A stretch of 64,000 bases of DNA from Sphyrna mokarran. Lineage: Eukaryota. Of the stretch, positions 12,891 to 61,971 are shown piece by piece. Each line of letters begins with the position of its first letter. Position 1 is the first letter of the stretch. The notes under the pieces were generated by a model that was given only the letters and a program-made list of their open reading frames with translations, searched no databases and was not told where the DNA came from. The position numbers and the translations under genes are program-made. The stretch spans positions 6,758,001 to 6,822,000 of the forward strand of contig JAGIQG010000011.1 of NCBI GenBank assembly GCA_024679065.1, in the 5' to 3' direction.

Positions 12891-13672
12891 ATAAATGTGT
12901 GGTGGTCCATTTTGGCAGGACCAATGGGATGAAGCAGTATAATATCAAGGGTAGGAGTCTTGGCAGTGTTGAGGAGCAGAAGGATCTTGGGGTCTGGGTC
13001 CATAGGTCTCTTAAATCTGCCCCGCAAGTGGAGGATGTGGTCAAGAAGGCATATAGTATACTGGCCTTCATTAATAGAGGAATTGAGTTTAGGAGTCAGG
13101 AGGTAATGCTGCAACTTTATAAGACCCTTGCCAGACCCCACTTGGAGTACTGTGCGCAGTTCTGGTCGCCTCCACTATAGGAAGGATGTGGAAGCTATTG
13201 AGAAGGTGCAGAGGAGATTTACAAGGATGTTGCCTGGATTGGGAGGCATGCCTTATGAAGATAGGTTGAGAGAGCTAGGTCTCTTCTCCCTGGAGAGACA
13301 AAGGTTGAGAGGCAACCTGATAGAGGTTTTTAAGATGTTGAGAGGAATAGATAGGGTGGATTCTCGGAGGCTATTTCCCAGGGCTGAAATGTCCGCTATG
13401 AGAGGACACAGGTTTAAGATGCTGGGGGGCAAGTACAGAGGAGATGTTAGAGGTAAATTTTTCACTCAGAGGGTGGTGAGTGAATGGAATCGGTTGCCGT
13501 CAGTGGTGGTAGAGGTGAACTCGCTGGGGTCTTTTAAGAGACTTCTGGATGAGTACGTGGGATGTAATGGGATTGGGAGTTACAGATAGGTCTATGGCCT
13601 CGTAAGTATAGATATAATCGGCACAACTTGTGGGCCGAAGGGCCTGTTTGTGCTGTAGTGTTCTATGTTCTA
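12891..13672 (+). mobile_element. CR1-like LINE 3' fragment
   Basis: ORFs 12899..13180 and 13128..13589 (RPHLEYCAQFWSP, LFSLERQRLRGNLIEVFK); tail ttctatgttcta; TSD tgactcag at 12883-12890 and 13673-13680. Confidence 0.93.
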
Positions 13673-13941: not shown

Positions 13942-14510
13942 GGGGTATCAGTGGTTGTAGGCGTTTATAACTCTAGAATACAGTACTAGTGGGTACAGGT
14001 CTGTCTCTGTATAACACTCGGGTACAATACTGATATGTACAGATCTGTCTCTGTATAACACTGGAGTACTGTACTGGTAAGTATTGGTCAGTCTCTGTAT
14101 AACACTGGATACAGTACTTTTGGATATGGGTCTGTCACTGTATAACACTGGGGTACAATATTGGTGCGTATTGGTACTTCCCAATATAACACTGGGCTGC
14201 AGTACTGATGGTACAGTGTCTCTCACTGTATAATATTGGATATCGTACTGGTGGATGCAGGTCTGTCTCTGTATAACATTGGGGCACAGTACTGGTGGGT
14301 ACAGGTCTGTCTCTGTATAACATTGGGGCACAGTACTGGTGGGTACAACACTGTGTCTCTGTACAACACTGCGGTACAGTACTGGTGGGTACAGGTCTGT
14401 CTCTGTATAATACTGGGGTAAAGTACTGATAGGTATAGGTCTGTCACTCTATAACACTGGGATACATATTGGTGGATAGAGACGTATGACTGTTTAACAT
14501 TGTTGTACAG
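13942..14510. repeat. 44-bp minisatellite, about 13 degenerate units
   Basis: Unit ggggcacagtactggtgggtacaggtctgtctctgtataacatt (14281-14324; next unit starts 14325); explains the repetitive ORFs 13948-14447. Confidence 0.92.
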
Positions 14511-18003: not shown

Positions 18004-19757
18004 TAGGCACTTAGAGTGTTGCGATCTGATTAGGGATACGCAGCATGGCTTTGTTAAGGGGAGGTCGTGCCTTACAAATCTGGTAGAATTTTTTGAGGAG
18101 GTGACGAAAACGGTCGACGAAGGGTGAGCCGTTGATGTCGTCTATATAGATTTCAGTAAGGCGTTTGACAAAGTCCCTCATGGGAGGTTAGTTGAGAAGG
18201 TCAAGGCTCATGGGATACAAGGACAGGTAGCTAGATGGATAAGTAACTGGCTTAGTAATAGGTGACAGAGAGTAATAGTGGAAGGGTCTTTCTCTAGTTG
18301 GAGGTCAGTCACCAGTGGTGTGCCGCAGGGCTCGGTACTGGAACCTCTTCTATTTGTAATATATATAAATGACTTGGAAGAGGGAGTAAGTGGAGCGATC
18401 AGCAAGTTTGCAGACGATACAAAGATGGCTGGACTTGCGGATAGTGAGGAGCGTTGTCAGGCGATGCAGCAGGACATAGGCTGGTAGCTTGGGCAGAAAG
18501 ATGGCAGATGGAATTCAATCCTGATAAATGTGAGGTGATGCATTTTGGGAAAAAGAATGTAGTGGGGAGGTATATGATAAAGGGTAGACCTATTAAGAGT
18601 ATAGAAACACAGAGGGACCTAGGGATGCAAGTGTACAAGTCTCTGAAGGTGGCAGAGCAAGTGGAGAAGGTTGTGAAGAAAGCATATAGTATGTTAGCCT
18701 TTATAGGAAGGGGTATAGAGTACAAGAGCGGGCCTTTAATGTTGCAGTTGTATAAACGTTGGTTAGACCTCATTTGGAATACTGTGTGCAGTTCCAGTCG
18801 CCTTACTATCAGAAGGACGTGGAGACTCTGAAGAAAGTGCAGAGGAGGTTTATCAGAATGCTGCCTGGTATGGAAGGTCTGAGTCACGAGGAGAGGTTAG
18901 GCAAATTCAGACTATTTTCCTTAGAAAGACGTAGACTTAGAGGAGATCTAATAGAGGTGTACAAGATTGAGGGGTATAGATAGAGTAAACAGGGTTAAGC
19001 TTTTTCCTAGGATGGATTCGAATAGCACGAGGGGTCACGGGCTTAGGGTGAGGGGGCTGAGGTATAATTTGGATGCTAGAGGGAGTTTTTTCACACAGAG
19101 GATGGTGGGGATATGGAATGCGCTACCAAGTAAAGTGGTGGAGGCAGGTACTCTGGAGTTATGTAAGAAATACTTAGATGAGCACATGAACAGAATGGGT
19201 ATGGAGGGGTATAGAAAACTGACTTAAAATAGGCATCATGAATCTTGGAAGTCCCTGGGAAGTGTGTAAATAGATGATGATATTGATGTACTTGTTTTTA
19301 TCCTACAGGTACTTTGGTCCACCTTGTTGTCTAACGAGGGGCATGCACGCGATGGGTCGTGCGAGGGCTGCTCCTGGGTTTTTTTCGAGAGTATCCTAGT
19401 GCTTCACGTTGTTAGTGTACGCTTGATCTGGACCATTTGATGGACAACACGACAGCTCAGTGACTATCGCTGTGCTGTGCAGATACATGGATTAGGGCCT
19501 GTGTCTGTGGGAGTTTGCACATTCTCCCCGTGCTTGCATGGGTTTTCTCTGGGTGCTCCGGTTTCCTCCCACATTCCAAAGATGTGCTCGTAGGCTAATT
19601 GGCAAAACAAATTCTCCCTAAATTGTCTCAAATTCGGTTTTTAATCCATAGATCTATAAACATGGACAGGGATCGCGGGTAGAGGTGGGAACATCGGGGT
19701 GACAGCACAGGCTCGTTGGGCCGAAGGGCCTGTTTCCCATGCTGTTTTGTTCTTTGT
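18004..19757 (+). mobile_element. CR1-like LINE, 5'-truncated, with long SINE-containing 3' UTR (copy A)
   Basis: RT motifs DFSKAFDKV, GVPQGSVL, KFADDTK in broken frames to the stop at 19227, then an approximately 530-nt UTR ending gctgttttgttctttgt. Confidence 0.93.
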
Positions 19758-20187: not shown

Positions 20188-20649
20188 GAGTAAGAAGTCT
20201 CACAACACCTGGTTAAAGTCCAACCAGTTTATTTGATAGTAAACCCACAAGCTTTCGGGGTTTGCCCTTTTGTCAGGTGAGTGGAGAGTTCTGATCTCAA
20301 ACAGAGCATATAAAAGGCACACACAGTTTATAGAATACTGATTAGAATGCGAGTTTTTAAAGCTAACCTGCTATTCATGTTTTAAAGATGCAGACAATGT
20401 TAGTGGAGATAGTATTAGGCATAGGTTAAAGAGATGTGTATTGTCTCCAGACTTCCATTCTAATCAGTATTCTGTAAACTGTGTGTGCCTTTTATATGCT
20501 TTGTTTGAGACCAGAACTCTCCATCTACCTGGTGAAGGGGCAAACCCCGAAAGCTTGTGGGTTTACTATCAAATAAACTGGTTGGACTTCAGCCTGGTAT
20601 TGTGAGACTTCTTATTGCATTTACTCCAGTCCAACGCTGGCATCTCCAC
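20188..20649. mobile_element. Non-coding Penelope derivative: inverted pair of terminal repeats, each with a decayed hammerhead
   Basis: Arms about 20190-20349 and 20456-20616; tail ccagtccaacgctggcatctccac; 13-bp TSD aacagga(c/t)ggata at 20175-20187 and 20650-20662; cores ctggtga...gaaagctt (+) and ctgacaa...gaaagctt (-). Confidence 0.88.
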
Positions 20650-23600
20650 AACAGGATGGATAAACACAGCAAAGCACATATTCAGTAAAAACTCCTTGTA
20701 AGTACCCTCTTGCAATCAGTGTACTCCAATATGCCTTTTTAATGAATTTCTAAACACATTTTTTTAAATGTTTTGATATCCTCTGAATAAAATGCATGTG
20801 TTGTATGCATGGGAGTTTTTTTTAAAAACACTATCATTTATTGTTTTTATAAGAAATGGAATAATATTTAGTTTCATAGTTGCAGTATACCAATACAACT
20901 GTTAATCTTTTATCATCTGCACTGCTATGTCCCTGACAGCAGGAAAATAAATGGGAAACTAGTAGAGCAACAACAGTACCATAGTAATTCATCACTGAGA
21001 TTAGTGGGATATCGATTCATGCCAATTCTCAATGTGTGACTGTTGTTCAGCTGTTAGAACTCTCACTCTGGAGTCAGAATTAAAGTCTTGGGTTCAGGTC
21101 GCACTCCAGAGACCTGAGCATCTCAACTGGCACTCAGCACTGTGCTGTCCTGTGGGTCTAAAATATGTGAGGTAAATGTGAGTTTTCTTTCTATGTCTGT
21201 AGCCCTTTGTCCACAGAGTTTCCACTTTGAGTACTGTTGGAGGCCAAGTTCATCATTAATCTAAGAGTTGATCATCCCCAATCACACTGTTAAATTTTAG
21301 TAGTCAACTTTAGAGCAGTGGAAGTTTACCATCTTGACCACAGAGAAATCAGTGAGAATAGTGGTTTGTGAAGTTAAAAAATTAGAGGGAATTTTAAAAT
21401 CTGACTTCTTCCTTTGTTGCTAATCCACTGAATAGAGTAAGAATGGAACTCGCTTCTCAAGGGCAATAGGGGATGGATAAAGGCTGGCCTTGCCTGCGTT
21501 GCTCACTAAGAATAAGCAAAAGTAGAATATTGTGGCTGGTGGAAGTTTGAAATAAAAACTATGCTGGAAATATTCAGCAGCATCTGTGGAGAGCAAAGCA
21601 AAGTTTATATTTCAGATTGATCAGCTTTTGCCAGAACTCTAGTCATTTTTCCACTATGTAAATTAAGGTCATGCTTTTGAAACCTGTGCATGTGGCTCTG
21701 AAGTCTGCTTGCAGGCATTCTTTATGATAATCATTTCTTTTTCTTTAAATAAAAGAAAATCATTAACAGACTGTGTTAGTATGTTCAAGCATGTGGCTGA
21801 AATTTGTTTGGCAGATGTCTTTAAGGTGATTTCGCTCAAGGGAAGAAGACACTTTGTTTTAATTAGCTTTTGGATATAGTACATCTCTTTGAAGTAACAT
21901 TTCGCATCTTAGATTTTAAAAATAATTTATTGGAGCCTTTGAAAGTGTACAGTTGCTTTGTCCAGATCTTACAATTCAGTTGAAAGTGAATAAATGCAAA
22001 TCTGATCCAGCATTAAGAATCCCCTTTCATTTAGCTGATATTAGCCAGAGCTAAACAATTAACCTTAACATGTTATATAAGATCATAAGGAATATGAATA
22101 GGAGTAGACCATATGGCCCCTCGGGTTTGCTCCGCAATTCAATAAGATCAGGCTGACCCAATCTTCACATGATCTTCAATTTCCTGTCTGTTTCCATAAC
22201 CTTTGATTCCCTTATAGTTCAGAAAAAACTTCAGCCTAGAATCTATTCAATGGCCTAGCCTCCGTACTACCTTGAGTAGAGAAATCTAAAGATTCACAAC
22301 CCTCTAAAAGTAGAAATTCCTTCTCATCTCCATCTTAAATGGGCGAGTACTTATTCTGAAACTGTGCCTCCTCATTTACAGTTCCTTTCAAGAGAAGAAC
22401 TATCTTCTCAATATCTACCCTGCTGAGCTCTCTTAGTATCTTTTATGTTTCAATATGATCGTATCTCATTTTTCAAAACTCCAGTGGGTATAGGATGGCA
22501 CTGTGGTTAGCTCTGCTGCCTCACAGCACCGGGGACCTGGGTTTGATTCCGGGTTTGGGTCACTGTCTGTGCGGAGTTTGCACATTCTCCCCATGTATGT
22601 GTGGGTTTCCTCCCACGTGCCGATTAGATGTATTGGCCATGCTAAATTCTCACTCAGTGTATCCGAATAGATGCTAGAATGTGGCGACAAGGAGATTTTC
22701 ACAGTAACTTCATTGCAGTGTGATACTAATAAATAAATTTTAAAAACTTATACAACCTGTTCAATCTTTCCTCATAAAACAATTCCTTTATCCTGGAACC
22801 AATCTAGTTAATCTTCATTGAACTGCCACCAATGCAAGTATATCCTTTCTCAAATAAGAAGACCAAAACTGTGCGGAGTACTCCCAAGTATGGTCTCAGC
22901 AATATCCTGTATAGTTGAATCAGGATTTCCCCATTTCAATACTCTATCCCCTTGCAATAAGGACCAACATTCCATTTAACTTGCTTGTTGTACTGGTGTG
23001 CTAACTTTGTATTTCATGTATGAGGACACCCAGATTCCTTTGTGCTGCAGCATTCTGTAGTCTGCTCTCTATTTAAATAATATTTTGCTCTTCTATTTGT
23101 CCTATCAAAGTACCGTAGATAATCTCAAAAATTCTATCATCCAAATTTTTGCATGCTTATTTTACCTATATCCCTTTGCAGGATCTTTATCCTACTCACA
23201 ACGTACGTTCGTCTGTACAAATCTTTGTATCATCAGCAAACGTGGCTGCAATACACTTTGATCCTTAAACAAAGTTGTTAATAAAAATTGTAAATAGTAG
23301 GGCCGCAACACTAAATCCCTGTGGTACACCTCCAGGTATAGTTTGCCAATCTGAAAATGACCATTTTTTCCCAATTCTGGCTCCTTGATTATTTAGCCAA
23401 CCTTCTTTCCATTCTAATATCCTCCTCCATTTATTTGGTGTAATAACTTTTTATATAGTGGCTTATTGAATATCATTTGAAAATCCAAATACACTGGGGT
23501 GAATTCTAGCCCCTACCACTTCCAACATAAGGGCAGGAAAGGAGTTGCCTTTCACACTGATAACTCTTAGGGCCCATAAATGGCCAATTAATGAGTACTT

Positions 23601-42304: not shown

Positions 42305-42924
42305 AAAGGAATACATTGCTGACAGTTTGCTTTTCTGGTGTCATCACTGTTTCCTTTGAAAAAGGAACAGATCGTTCCCAGGCTACACTGTTAACTTCTA
42401 GTCACCAGTAGAGCAGCTTATCAAAGAGCTGGAAGCAGTCGCCTGCCTGGTATCCAGGCCACATGGGGTTTTGACCAGCGAGTGGTTCAATGTACATTTG
42501 ACTATAAATAGAATAATAATGGGTAATGAGAACTCATTCATGGAGCAAGTCGTCAACTAGATTTGAGTTGCAAGCAGAGAGTTTAAGTTACATTGCAGCA
42601 TTGCTGTTGGTCAAGGATTTTCTGCAGTCAGTATACACAGGCAATGGAAGATCAGGAAGAACTTACATTTTTACATAGTATCTGTAATGTCCTTTGGACA
42701 TTGCATATGTCAGGAAACTTGGCAACTAATTTATTAAACCGTTAACAACAATGAGATAAATGACCCATGGCTCTGTTTTGGTTGAGGGATGAATATTGAC
42801 CAAGACACTGGCTAGAACTGCTACTTCTCTTCAATTGATGCCGTGGGAGGCTTTAAATCTAAGAGAGGAGAGGATAGATTGACGATTGTGCCATCAATTG
42901 ACATTGATATCTGTCACTGCTGAC

Positions 42925-43030
42925 TGCACTTGCCTGATGAAGACACGGGAGTGTTGAAAGCTCGCTATTTTACTATCAAATAAATCGGTTGGATTAATAA
43001 TTGGTGTTGCTAAATTCTTACTGAGTTCTT
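42925..43030 (+). mobile_element. Solo Penelope terminal-repeat insertion carrying a hammerhead core
   Basis: ctgatga-a-gacac-ggga-gtgtt-gaaa-gctc followed by tactatcaaataaatcggttgga, as in the 34.4-kb copy; flanked by the 9-bp direct repeat actgctgac (42916-42924, 43031-43039). Confidence 0.8.
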
Positions 43031-47575: not shown

Positions 47576-49296
47576 TTAGGGATAGGTCATGGTTAAATGC
47601 CATTATTTGCTTATATGACTAATAGTTTCCTCCACCCTTGGGATGTAAAATAATTATTTAGCACATGCACCATTTCTTTGTTTCATTTATAATATTCATG
47701 TTATAATTTTTAAGCACCCCTGCATTTGTTTTTAAGCATCCACATTTTCCTGGTGTAATTGTAAAAAATCTTGGTATTGATTTTAATATCCTTTACAAGT
47801 TTCTTTTCAAACTTCCTTTTTGAGAGTCTTACTAAAAGTATTGTAACCCTTTTTTTGTCGTTTGTATCTCTCCTATTCACCAGGATCTCTGCTTTCATTG
47901 CATTTTGTATACTTTTAGCTTTATGTTATCCCTTTCCTTTTGAATTGTCCATGACATTTTGCTTCTTAGGGGTATAACTGGTTTTGTATCACGTTAAATT
48001 ATTTTTTGAACACCTCTCACTGATCTTTTTTTGTTTAACTTCTTAAACTGGACGGTATGTTAAATATTTTATTATGACCAGTCTCTCGTCCTGTTGAAGT
48101 TGTCCTTATATAAATCTAGAATCCAATTAAATGCTCCATGTTTCTCCCTTTCAAACACAGCACTCTGGTCACTATTAAATAAATGTTCACATACTGATAG
48201 AGTATAATTAAATCTGTATCATTGCTCATTAAATCTGACATGATTTGCCTCTCTGATGGTTCCAGCATGTAGTTGCTGCAAAAATTATTCCAAATACTTT
48301 CAAGAAATTCATTACCTTTCTGACTGGAGCTTGTCTCTTATCCCAGTCTATATGGAAGTGAACATTCCCCATTAAAACCTCTCTGCCTTTACTACATAAG
48401 ATAAATATTAAATCCAGTCTCCACATTAATACATTCTTTGATTACACAGCTACTATTAGGAGCACTATACACGATTCTCACTGCAAACTTAAATCTGCTG
48501 AATGGACCTATCTTTTTTTAAGTTGATCTTTCTCTACACCCTAGCTATAACTGTAACACTACAATCTACACCCTCTCCTCTATGAATGGTGTGCTTTGTC
48601 TGTATCGCAAGCAAGAAACAATACTTTTCACTGTATACTAATACACGTGACAATAATAAATCAAACTGTAGGGTTTCTGTGATTCAATGAAATCAAAGAC
48701 AGTAAATTGAACTGCCATCTGTTCTGTCAAGTGGGAAAGATCCCAAAATTCAATTTGGAGAAGAGTAGAGCAGTTTCTAGGCAATATTTATCTCTCCATC
48801 AAGATCATTAAAACAGATTATCTGGTCATTATCTTGTTTGTGGCCTTTATTCTACAGCAATTTACTGCTCCATTTCTCTTCATTAGAGCAGTAACTATAC
48901 GTTAAGTGCTTTATATGTAAATGCACTTCATAAATCAACATTTCTTGTCATCTTTAGTGTTAACAAATTCCACAATTCCTAATACTGATACTGCGTCATG
49001 TAGTTTTCATAGAAACCCTATAATGCAGAAAGAAGCCATTCAGCCCATCGAGTCTGCATCGACCACAATCTCACCCAGGCCCTACCCTCATAGCCCTACA
49101 TATTTTACCCACTAATCCTTCTAATCTACGCATCTCAGGACACTAATGGGCAATTTTAGCATAGTCAATCAAACTAACTCACACATCTTTGGACTGTAAT
49201 ATATAGAACTGAAATATCCAGGTTTCTCTGGGCAGGGAGTTTAGTTGGTGGGCCCCAGTGATATTATCACCTTATTTGTCAATTCAAGCAGATATA

Positions 49297-49421
49297 TTTG
49301 GTTTTTAATCCATAGATCTATAAACATGGACAGGGATCGCAGGTAGAGGTGGGAACATCGGGGTGGCGGCGTGGGCTCGTTGGGCCGAAGGGCCTGTTTC
49401 CCATGCTGTTTTGTTCTTTGT
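49297..49421 (+). mobile_element. 3' stub of the copy A/B LINE family (copy C)
   Basis: ttggtttttaatccatagatctataaacatggacagggatcgc...tttcccatgctgttttgttctttgt, nearly identical to 19634-19757. Confidence 0.9.
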
Positions 49422-50228
49422 ATTCTTTGTATATACTTCCTGTGTGCAGTTCTCCAAGTTGGCCTTAACACTGGCATATTGTCTTCCAATGCCATGACTT
49501 TGTCATTGCTTTGATAAAATTCATTTCAGGTGGATAAACTGAATGGATGTTATATTACCGATGTGGATATGACCTTTTTTGTTCTACTGTAACTTACAAA
49601 AGTTATTATGAGATGCCTAAAGATTGTAGAATGGCAATCAAACTCCAAATATGTGAAAATGAAGGAACTGACATCAAGAGTGAAAGCACAAGAGGCACTT
49701 AGAGTGCTAGGTACAAAAAAAAGAGAATGAAATGCAAAGTGAAATACGCTTAGAAATGAATGCAAAAATGTGCAGGAGGCTACAAATTCAAAAGACTGAG
49801 GAATAAACTCTTAAAACAAAAAGAGGACTGAAAATAACTCTTAATTACTAAGGATAAGCTTAGTAATTGTACTTAGTAATGTTACTCATTAAAGGGGGAG
49901 GCGATGGAATTCCTTTCTCTACTGTTTTATTGCAGCCTGTTTGATCTGCTAATATTGCTAACAATGACTCTCAGACTGTAGAGGGAGATAGTGTCTGAAA
50001 AATGCACAAGAGATAAAGAGATTGAATTTGAGTTCTGGCAAGGATGCTTTGTTTGACTGATGTTCGATATTCTTGATATTTCTTCGAAGCTCCAAGACGT
50101 TATTGCAGTTTTAAGTTAGCCTCCTGAATTCTGACTTTTTATTGGTACACTGCATTAGTGGACTATGATATAAACTAGTAGGAAGATCAGAAGGTTTCTC
50201 CATCTGATGTGGTTTTATTTGTTTTCAG

Positions 50229-59018: not shown

Positions 59019-59279
59019 TGCCGAAGGACTTACTGCCTGACATGTTAGACAGTGAGAATCTGGAGAAACATGAGTTGACGTTTCTGAGTGACCTGTTGAA
59101 CACTAAACCCAATGCACCCAATGACTTCAGCCATGAGTGGCAGAGCACATTTGGAAGCTCAGAGCTCAGCCCAGGGCCTATGGCAGAAGCGACCGAACCC
59201 AAACTAGCTGATGCTCCAACTGGTTTCCTGCCGTCTGAACTGTTTGACCTCAGCCATGATCCAGCAGGAACTTTTATTG
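59019..59279 (+). CDS. ICA1L: ICA1L coding exon (ICA69 C-terminal region)
   Basis: Acceptor cctttgtttcag, donor gtgagt; 261 nt, phase 1 to 1; (V)PKDLLPDMLDSENLEKHELTFLSDLL...FSHEWQSTFG...GFLPSELFDL...GTFI. Confidence 0.93.
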
Positions 59280-60654: not shown

Positions 60655-61342
60655 GTATGTGACAGAGAACATTGATTCAGCTCATATCTCTATGAACAGA
60701 ATTAACACAATTTTTGCTGGAATCATAATTGTGTCAGAAAAGAAAAATATTTTAAACAAAAATTGCCTCCAGTATTTTAACATCCCATTAGCATCACAGA
60801 TGATTGTCACAGATGTAAATACATGAAATGATTATCATCAAGGAAAAGAAAATACTGGTGTCAAGTCTATCCATTGTATAGCTGAGCTTTTTAATTCAGC
60901 GTGTATCCCAGACTTAGTCGGCTCCAATTAACGGGATGGTGGGTTTAGTCTCATTGGGAGAGGAAAACCATCAGAATTCCCAATCCAAATGCTTTGCAGG
61001 GAGACTTGCTGATAAATGTGCCTATGCACTTTATGGTCTGATACGCCCTGGACTGAAATGCTCTAATGATGCCAGTAGCTGTGGAACTGCAATACTCTCA
61101 GCTGAAGAAGAGGACACTGGAGAGATTGAGAATGAAAGATTCTCTGTACAGATTATTCCAGGACTCAGCTACTTGTCAAATACACTTTGTTTTTTCCTCC
61201 GTTCTTTGAGACAAAGAACAAAGAGATGGAGGGATATAGGAGACTGTTTTAAATAGGGATCAAGAGCCTTGGCACGCTCCTGGGAATCAATTGATTCCTG
61301 TGGATCTTCCAATATATTTTCTGGCTCATTTGTTTTACTTTT

Positions 61343-61848
61343 GAGCTTCTGGGAATTCCCTTGAATGTTTGCATAAGATGTGCATGTTATTGATGTTTTT
61401 CTCTCTTAATCCACAGTGCTTCGGTCCGCCTTGTTGTCCAACAAGGGGTATACACGCAGTGGGTGGTGCGAGGGCTGCTGTTGGATGTTTCAAGAGTAGC
61501 CTAGTACTTCACGTTGTTAGTGTCTGTTTAAACTGGACCAGCTGATGGGCAACACGACAGCTCAGTGGATTTGGGCCAGTATCTGTGGGAGTTTGCGCAT
61601 TCTCCCCATGATTGTGTGGGTTTTCTCCGGGTGCTTCGGTTTCCCCCCACACCCCAAAGATGTGCTCTTAGGCTGATTGGTGTAACAAATTATCCCTAAA
61701 TTGTCTCCCCTTTGTTTCCAATGTGGATTTCCATAAGCATAGACAAGGGTCATGGGTGGAAGAGGGAACTCACACTGTTAAAATGGTGGCATGGGCTCAT
61801 TGGGCCGAAGGGCCTGTTTCCCATGCTGTGTTGTTCTTTGTTCTTTTT
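61343..61848 (+). mobile_element. Diverged relative of the copy A/B 3' UTR (copy D)
   Basis: Collinear blocks ccttgttgtccaacaagggg, cttcacgttgttagtgt, caacacgacagctcagtg, the V-core, and tail gggccgaagggcctgtttcccatgctgtgttgttctttgttc. Confidence 0.85.
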
Positions 61849-61971
61849 GAGCAGCAACCATCTGCAAGTGGGCAGATCTCATTTTGTATAATGAGGTTTG
61901 TTTATATTGGGACAGAATCTGTACAGCAAAGTTACAGCTGCCCGATTAGCCAGCTAAACCCAGATTTCTGA

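Follow-up and report, generated by a model that had tools for sequence, protein, structure and literature searches.

Why does a CR1-type LINE carry what looks like a V-SINE behind its ORF2 stop codon, how much of that sequence is SINE, and what has kept it there? We addressed these questions in a 64-kb window (the whole stretch of DNA that was analysed), which is animal DNA of 41% GC with many decayed LINEs and SINEs. The family is a real LINE-SINE chimera with a reversed flow of sequence: the head, the V-domain and the post-V segment of a V-SINE were captured, and the tail was not clearly captured. Our preferred reading, with a probability of roughly 0.7, is that an autonomous CR1-type lineage once acquired, in its 3' UTR, the 5' two-thirds of a V-SINE, and that this piece has been copied with the LINE from then on.

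Four insertions of one CR1-type family

Self-comparison of the window revealed four insertions of the family, copies A to D (Table 1). Copies A and B share 93.5% identity across 1761 nt and 93.1% across their last 576 nt, C is 94% identical to both over 127 nt, and D is ~74% identical to either A or B. All four start downstream of the apurinic endonuclease/ORF1 region. Compared with B, the ORF2 of A has three indels and two in-frame stops; B retains ~480 open codons with a single frameshift near the end. D consists of the last 13 ORF2 codons, a stop codon (61250-61252) and a UTR of 593 nt, which has 83 extra nt near its beginning and has lost another 27 nt from the head. Each of the three copies extending into ORF2 has, after the stop, a UTR of 523-593 nt with a head remnant, a V-domain and ~40 nt past V. 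The UTR limits that the initial annotation gave for A and B were confirmed.

Table 1 Features of the LINE family in the window.
Feature	Position	Strand	Remarks
Copy A	18004-19757	+	5'-truncated ORF2 plus UTR and tail
Copy A, ORF2	18004..19227	+	RT domain to stop codon 19225-19227
Copy A, UTR	19228-19757	+	530 nt
Copy A, UTR start	19228..19308	+	Ends in pyrimidine tract and CAG, 3' splice acceptor-like, AG 19307-19308
Copy A, probable conserved domain	19309..19439	+	Predicted three-way junction 19315-19435
Copy A, V-SINE tRNA-type head remnant	19440..19497	+	A-box-like motif 19453-19463
Copy A, V-domain	19498..19582	+	19540-19570 matches published Vhc SINE
Copy A, post-V segment	19583..19625	+	Homologous to free V-SINEs
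Copy A, linker	19626..19701	+	Poorly conserved
Copy A, CR1-type terminal stem-loop and short terminal repeat unit	19702..19757	+	
Copy B	45522..~47530	-	5'-truncated; 5' boundary approximate
Copy B, stop codon	46045-46047	-	
Copy B, UTR	46044-45522	-	523 nt
Copy C	49296..49428	+	Linker and tail only, 5'-truncated
Copy D	61211..61845	+	Diverged subfamily

Several details of the insertion sites were recorded. D lies between 6-nt direct repeats resembling a target-site duplication (61205-61210 and 61846-61851), and no such repeat was found at A. The extra 83 nt of D (61287-61370) are flanked by an imperfect short direct repeat (11/12 nt, p=0.0065); deletion between its two units may have removed this stretch from A and B. 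Copy B (junctions 47530 and 45521, minus strand) interrupts an older CR1 of higher AT content, at the homologous codon. The frame of the older CR1 resumes on either side, the 5' junction of B is open in frame, and the 5' end of B equals its 3' flank at 8/9 nt; this resembles either a 5' truncation guided by homology or a target-site duplication that has mutated. A host exon at ~59019-59279 (+) encodes an ICA69 C-terminal domain (Pfam PF04629, E 7e-19) and is probably part of ICA1 or ICA1L. Copies A, C and D share its strand, with D ~2 kb downstream of it.

The flanks of the copies are unrelated, as all 12 pairwise comparisons of 500-nt flanks fell within the range of shuffled sequences (30 shuffles per comparison). 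The ORF2 sequences of A and B differ by 69 substitutions in 404 ungapped codons, gapped codons and the B stop being left out, and 30 of these are synonymous. Neutral expectation is 20.1 +/- 3.5 (p=0.004, 5000 simulations matched for CpG, transition and transversion classes). Substitutions per codon position (21, 18 and 30) show a modest excess at the third. The raw dN/dS of 0.34 overstates selection because of transition bias, and the class-matched simulation was used instead. Purifying selection acted on ORF2 while A and B diverged. Part of their divergence therefore arose in protein-coding source copies, both with the UTR. Protein P0121 ends in the same C-terminus (62/71 to A, 43/46 to B), so the family exists in other data, at the level of protein only.

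With all three ORF2-reaching copies carrying it between unrelated flanks, the SINE-derived part moves with the LINE, as the initial annotation had claimed. Segmental duplication, which common DNA around A and B would have indicated, is ruled out by the unrelated flanks. The wider explanation that the arrangement reflects duplication, an assembly artefact or separate SINE insertions beside LINE copies is refuted by these flanks together with the synonymous excess, and the copies also lie on opposite strands, have four different 5' ends and share one embedded V clade. A chance junction does exist in the window: the free V-SINE S2 (16843-16500, minus strand) begins exactly where a CR1 tail of the same orientation ends (16797), so LINE-SINE junctions arise by simple insertion. 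Even so, we regard this explanation as extremely improbable for the family.

The reverse transcriptase of CR1 elements binds a terminal stem-loop, starts synthesis at the target site and reads through the UTR, generally ending before the copy is complete. To judge from its sequence, the element appears to work like a CR1 LINE, having the testable features except the octamer end of amniotes. The frame of copy B contains an RT domain (Pfam RVT_1, E 1.5e-33). Among the best 120 of 7648 matches to B ORF2, the closest named vertebrate relatives came from Hypanus sabinus (65%) and Chiloscyllium punctatum (64%), and those from birds and turtles had 40-56% identity; we take these ray, shark, bird and turtle RT proteins to be CR1. 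The higher identity to ray and shark proteins makes an elasmobranch the probable source of the window. As for CR1, all four copies are 5'-truncated with a common 3' end, and the family tail has a 3' terminal hairpin, a stem-loop of 15 pairs. An octamer microsatellite end of the amniote type is absent. Instead, there are 1-2 copies of a 7-9 nt unit, one base off the heptamer unit of another CR1 in the window, copy E. The octamer end is described for amniotes in the available text of PMC4316615, so its absence leaves a fish CR1 possible. The same text describes CR1 retroposition by target-primed reverse transcription and suggests the 3' hairpin as the RT recognition site.

The family thus resembles vertebrate CR1, as portrayed in the accessible parts of PMC4316615 and PMC13343379 (the latter with 1,003 CR1-group consensus sequences), in its RT-bearing ORF2, heavy 5' truncation and terminal hairpin. 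It differs from amniote CR1 in its terminal unit, and those parts describe no SINE within a vertebrate CR1 UTR. It also differs from its neighbors. The UTR of copy E, at 12891-13672, measured 82 nt (13590-13671), agreeing with the ~80 nt first noted. By eye, all 10 other CR1 3' ends inspected in the window were ORF2-like to within ~60-100 nt of the end, and none had a V core; the UTR of the family spans 523-593 nt. An ORF2 tree of six window copies resolved only A+B.

The SINE-derived segment, the linker and the tail

A profile of five free V-SINE cores matched A (E 9e-17), B (8e-16) and D (4e-15), in line with the V-SINE core first recognized there. Compared by eye, the Vhc SINE of Strombus gigas (PMC4758252, figure S4) agrees with B at 30/31 nt, with A at 29/31 and with D at 28/31.

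A profile HMM of free heads missed the tRNA-type head in A, B and D, and ARAGORN found no tRNA. An ungapped matrix trained on five free heads placed A (19440) first and B third among the non-training sites of 127,934 positions. D ranked 135 at 34 columns because of the deletion in its head, and was the first non-training site at 24 columns. Against what we take to be the A box and B box consensus, the embedded copies scored 7, 7 and 8 of 9 for the A box. The B box is absent from all three embedded heads (best 6/10), compared with 8-10 of 10 in five of the six free copies, the sixth having its own deletion. The embedded head of A has lost ~18-20 nt, B box included, and the head-to-V distance is ~71 nt in A and B and 44 in D, versus 87-91 in four intact free copies. 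The embedded head is real but weak. The matrix ranks and the B-box scores bear out the initial description of a decayed tRNA-like head with no clear B box.

Embedded and free consensus sequences agree at 28/42 positions in the head, 58/69 in V and 29/41 in the post-V segment. Homology to free SINEs was shown from 19440 to ~19625 only, and the linker (19626-19699) matched none of five free SINE linkers (15/15 comparisons, p 0.11-0.86). The claim that a whole V-SINE had been captured is therefore not upheld. As to stand-alone movement, V-bearing copies lie downstream of ORF2 in 3/3 cases and none starts at the head. As it lacks a B box and shows no stand-alone copy, the embedded piece is best called V-SINE-derived and not a V-SINE.

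The head remnant lies in register upstream of V, so the sequence flowed from SINE to LINE, the reversed direction that had been proposed. Within the window, the phylogeny of embedded and free V-cores places the embedded copies in one clade (support 100/99 among 8 rows), and at 14 diagnostic columns A, B and D have in common a base seen in 0/6 free copies. The clade and these columns argue for a single capture. Since the flanks are unrelated, ORF2 evolved under purifying selection and the embedded V forms one clade, this one capture was spread by the LINE. D carries the 14 diagnostic columns at ~74% identity, so the chimera predates the A/B split and is long-lived, as suspected.

At 19546 of A, and in the same column of B and D, the embedded copies have T, against C in five of six free copies. 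T is also the base at this site in three published invertebrate Vhc SINEs (accessible part of PMC4758252). As one site only, this hints that the donor was an older V-SINE type. The T at 19546 would also suit the LINE being the ancestral donor of the V-domain, with V-SINEs taking V from such a UTR, and LINE origins of SINE bodies have been proposed (Kojima 2018, PMC5786205, in the text available). However, the tRNA-type head remnant upstream of V, in SINE register, largely refutes this direction. Moreover, the Vhc block occurs in mollusc, arthropod and cnidarian SINEs according to the available portion of PMC4758252, and V is missing from the 10 other CR1 ends inspected. We consider LINE donorship very improbable.

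Free V-SINEs in the window show two types of 3' end. S2 (16600-16500, minus strand) and S3 (22650-22740, plus strand) have a common end with an A-rich AATAAA-type run, and S1, S5, S6, S7 and S8 have a CR1-type tail, unlike S2 and S3.

The last ~55 nt of the family scored best against CR1 copies E (53.5) and G (45.5), versus 14-32 against five free SINE tails and 15-28 against seven other LINE tails. The terminal stem-loop of A has an outer stem at 19702-19745 and an inner hairpin at 19717-19732. It is paired in 94% of cells across seven LINE tails, in which covariation did not go beyond shuffles (38/500), and a tail tree resolved no groupings. We lean toward the tail being of the LINE's own origin. 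The statement that the LINE now ends in its parasite's sequence is not sustained, with the linker unmatched and the tail closest to CR1 E and G.

A whole V-SINE could nevertheless have landed downstream and been read through, its tail replacing that of the LINE, so that everything from 19440 to the end would be SINE. The head, V, post-V, linker and tail do follow the order of a free SINE, and the head-to-end length of 318 nt, plus the ~20-nt deletion, fits a whole SINE, near the length of free S1 (6074 to ~6405). A profile of three free SINE tails matches 19683-19736 (E 7.5e-4). Tail borrowing is documented by the HE1-HER1 pair in the table of PMC3747384, as far as that source was available, and since V-SINEs take their tails from LINEs, a donor with such a tail may exist outside the window. 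The unmatched linker (15/15) speaks against this history, as do the tail scores (14-32 with free SINE tails, 45-54 with G and E) and the absence from the unique part of any relic of a former LINE tail (12/12 comparisons, p>0.26). We regard it as a real but minority possibility.

Under our preferred reading of partial capture, the event would have occurred in a source copy along one of two routes: a V-SINE inserted ahead of the LINE's own tail, or the RT switched templates, which is how retroposons are usually proposed to exchange modules (PMC4824008, accessible part). The UTR start showed no homology to the short UTRs of CR1 copies E, F and G (9/9 comparisons, p>0.06), so the insertion point cannot be placed. 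Loss of the B box would have removed the internal Pol III promoter; the captured piece would for that reason no longer be a Pol III unit, and would be read only within the LINE transcript. The D lineage would have lost a further part of the head.

Conservation along the UTR

Within the window, the 212 nt preceding the head match only A, B and D, and the domain at 19309-19439 has no further occurrence. The unique segment of ~210 nt described in the initial annotation thus stands, but its conservation and predicted structure had been missed. What is new is a conserved domain, probably structured, directly behind an acceptor-like site.

At sites where A and B agree, D matches them at 42/73 positions in the UTR start, 97/115 in the domain, 28/28 in the head and spacer, 73/81 in V, 37/42 in the post-V segment, 51/78 in the linker (counted over 19626-19713) and 40/42 in the tail, gap columns being dropped. 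The pattern is unchanged without CpG columns. Identity to D rises from 58% to 88% right after the AG at 19307-19308, remains high across the domain, the head and V, and then falls to 65%. The change in conservation is best placed at 19309, immediately past this AG (2-lnL range 19308-19323). With the tail excluded, the best high-identity block is 19310-19628 (237/268 versus 95/153), which 0/200 permutations reach. V alone exceeds the rest (p=0.006) and is not above its neighbors in the block. The profile amounts to a single comparison, of three junction-bearing copies with D the sole diverged one; from this one diverged copy, the close match across 19309-19625 suggests that the LINE RNA is constrained.

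The region 19309-19439 folds to the same predicted three-way junction (~120 nt) in A, B and D. Single-sequence z-scores were -2.05, -1.86 and -1.65. The alignment gave z -3.9 with column shuffles and -2.5 (10/400) with a dinucleotide-preserving null (antisense -1.65), for a region that was picked after the fact. Of 43 pairs, 28 are invariant, 10 have one-sided changes and 5 are broken, with 0 two-sided compensatory changes. On this moderate evidence, 19309-19439 is probably a conserved, structured domain. No conserved fold was found for V (alifold z +0.26), and the available text of PMC4758252 likewise reports that the Vhc hairpin is not preserved in fish V-SINEs.

Other sources for the domain were tried. 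Rfam gave 0 matches at E<=10 for the UTR of A and the domains of B and D, so a known RNA (5S, Y RNA, snoRNA, ribozyme) was rejected. Four weak matches elsewhere in D (E 0.66-8.3) were far below gathering, and the whole window had 0 matches at gathering. A reading frame in the unique domain was also rejected, as frames differ among A, B and D and many differences are of CpG type.

What would hold 19309-19625 together? We somewhat favor purifying selection on this stretch, most likely as a cis element of the LINE RNA that aids the stability of the RNA or its assembly into RNPs, with drift in the spacers on either side. If V is indeed kept by selection in a LINE, it must help the retroposon RNA itself.

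Alternatively, the capture is real and the identity of 19309-19625 stems from exchange between subfamilies, by template switch or gene conversion, with V as a passenger. Its boundaries are step-like, and the promoter-dead head remnant is 28/28 identical yet adjoins a 27-nt deletion in D. That D is the sole diverged copy and that two-sided compensatory changes number 0 would agree with exchange as well. However, the low-high-low-high pattern needs several switch points, the 14 embedded columns shared by D exclude conversion from the window's free SINEs, and pairing is kept in 10 of the 15 variable pairs of the domain. We find exchange rather unlikely as the source of the identity.

A more speculative idea is that 19309-19625 is a domesticated RNA module that starts at a working 3' splice acceptor, with V acting in cis for retrotransposition independently of Pol III. 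All three copies have a pyrimidine tract and CAG before 19309. Joined to a short leader, the domain, V and tail could form a small non-coding RNA, itself retroposable. By a crude score, 164 of the 8969 AGs in the window do as well as the acceptor of A and B, and 24 as well as that of D. No donor scoring at least 7/9 was found in the UTR start, although several were found in ORF2, and no copy in the window starts at the 19309 acceptor. Against splicing, a T-rich tract may cause both signals, no donor was identified, and three of the four copies lie on the host exon strand. We judge the idea quite unlikely.

Known systems and other elements of the window

The original papers on HE1 and HER1 are reportedly those of Ogiwara et al. 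from 1999 and 2002. In the accessible part of PMC3747384, this system of sharks and rays has, like our family, a V-domain, a tRNA-type head and a CR1-type tail, with the tail common to SINE and LINE. There, the SINE takes the tail of the LINE and is a Pol III unit; here, the head and V lie inside the LINE, with no B box. HE1/HER1 is likened to our family by description, not by sequence.

BovB lineages with SINE or CR1 fragments at their ends are said to have been described by Walsh et al. in 2013. They resemble our family in that a LINE master absorbs and spreads the sequence of another retroposon. They differ in belonging to the RTE clade and in reportedly carrying terminal fragments, which are not known to include a conserved SINE domain with evidence of constraint.

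Closer precedents for flow from SINE to LINE are two Repbase entries in the available text of PMC5786205, in which SINE-related sequence is fixed in an autonomous LINE consensus. Ingi-3_AC has a Ceph-SINE/RTE-like stretch in its 5' UTR, possibly through SINE recombination, and RTE-1_DAn has tRNA-like sequence within the LINE. Both are of other clades and lack a V-domain, and the Ingi insert is in the 5' UTR. In the same text, the Repbase SINE-LINE comparison of Kojima 2018 names no LINE with a V-domain, and no sequences resembling the conserved SINE bodies were found as their source. The Vhc SINEs of molluscs and arthropods share the ~31-nt core (28-30/31 identity), but they are free with intact heads, whereas our family has a head remnant inside a LINE (PMC4758252, accessible part).

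A CR1 with V in its UTR was not found in the literature searched, and an entry in a repeat catalogue (Dfam, Repbase) may exist. Motif searches of the supplements of PMC4824008 (two files), PMC11481361 and PMC5786205 gave 0 matches, as did the first 400 characters of the PMC13343379 consensus sequences, a span short of their 3' ends and so no evidence on the UTR, and the available portions of PMC5499810, PMC7245038, PMC8620236 and PMC8303610 contain nothing on such an element. Beyond the window, the junction did not turn up in the collections searched, which comprise no shark genome. Two scans of bacterial and archaeal genomes, aimed at copies present as contamination, gave 0. One search with translated UTR frames returned no candidate; another gave 27 weak matches (best E 2.4e-8), none spanning the 73-residue query and most in the V part.

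The role of SINE central domains is still unclear (PMC11481361, accessible part), and host function and element integrity are rival ideas for the conservation of V-type domains (PMC4758252, likewise in part). This family bears on the open question of what preserves central domains like V across animals from cnidarians to fish: as V sits here in an autonomous LINE and has no Pol III promoter, it can be viewed apart from SINE biology, which offers a route to its function. Here, sequence passed from parasite to host element, the reverse of the usual borrowing. In repeat annotation, each such copy would be recorded as a LINE plus a SINE, and young V-SINEs would be overcounted.

Two other repeats in the window were recorded. 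On the minus strand, the element at 32000-34440 matches RT (E 0.0029) and GIY-YIG (E 0.00015), neither reaching the curated cut-off, and we presume from this domain pair that it is Penelope-like. The matches sit between 541-nt inverted repeats that are 96.5% identical, and related palindromic pieces lie at 20195-20654 and 42923-43030. Positions 13979-14475 hold a tandem array of a 44-nt unit in ~11 copies, with 76% matches.
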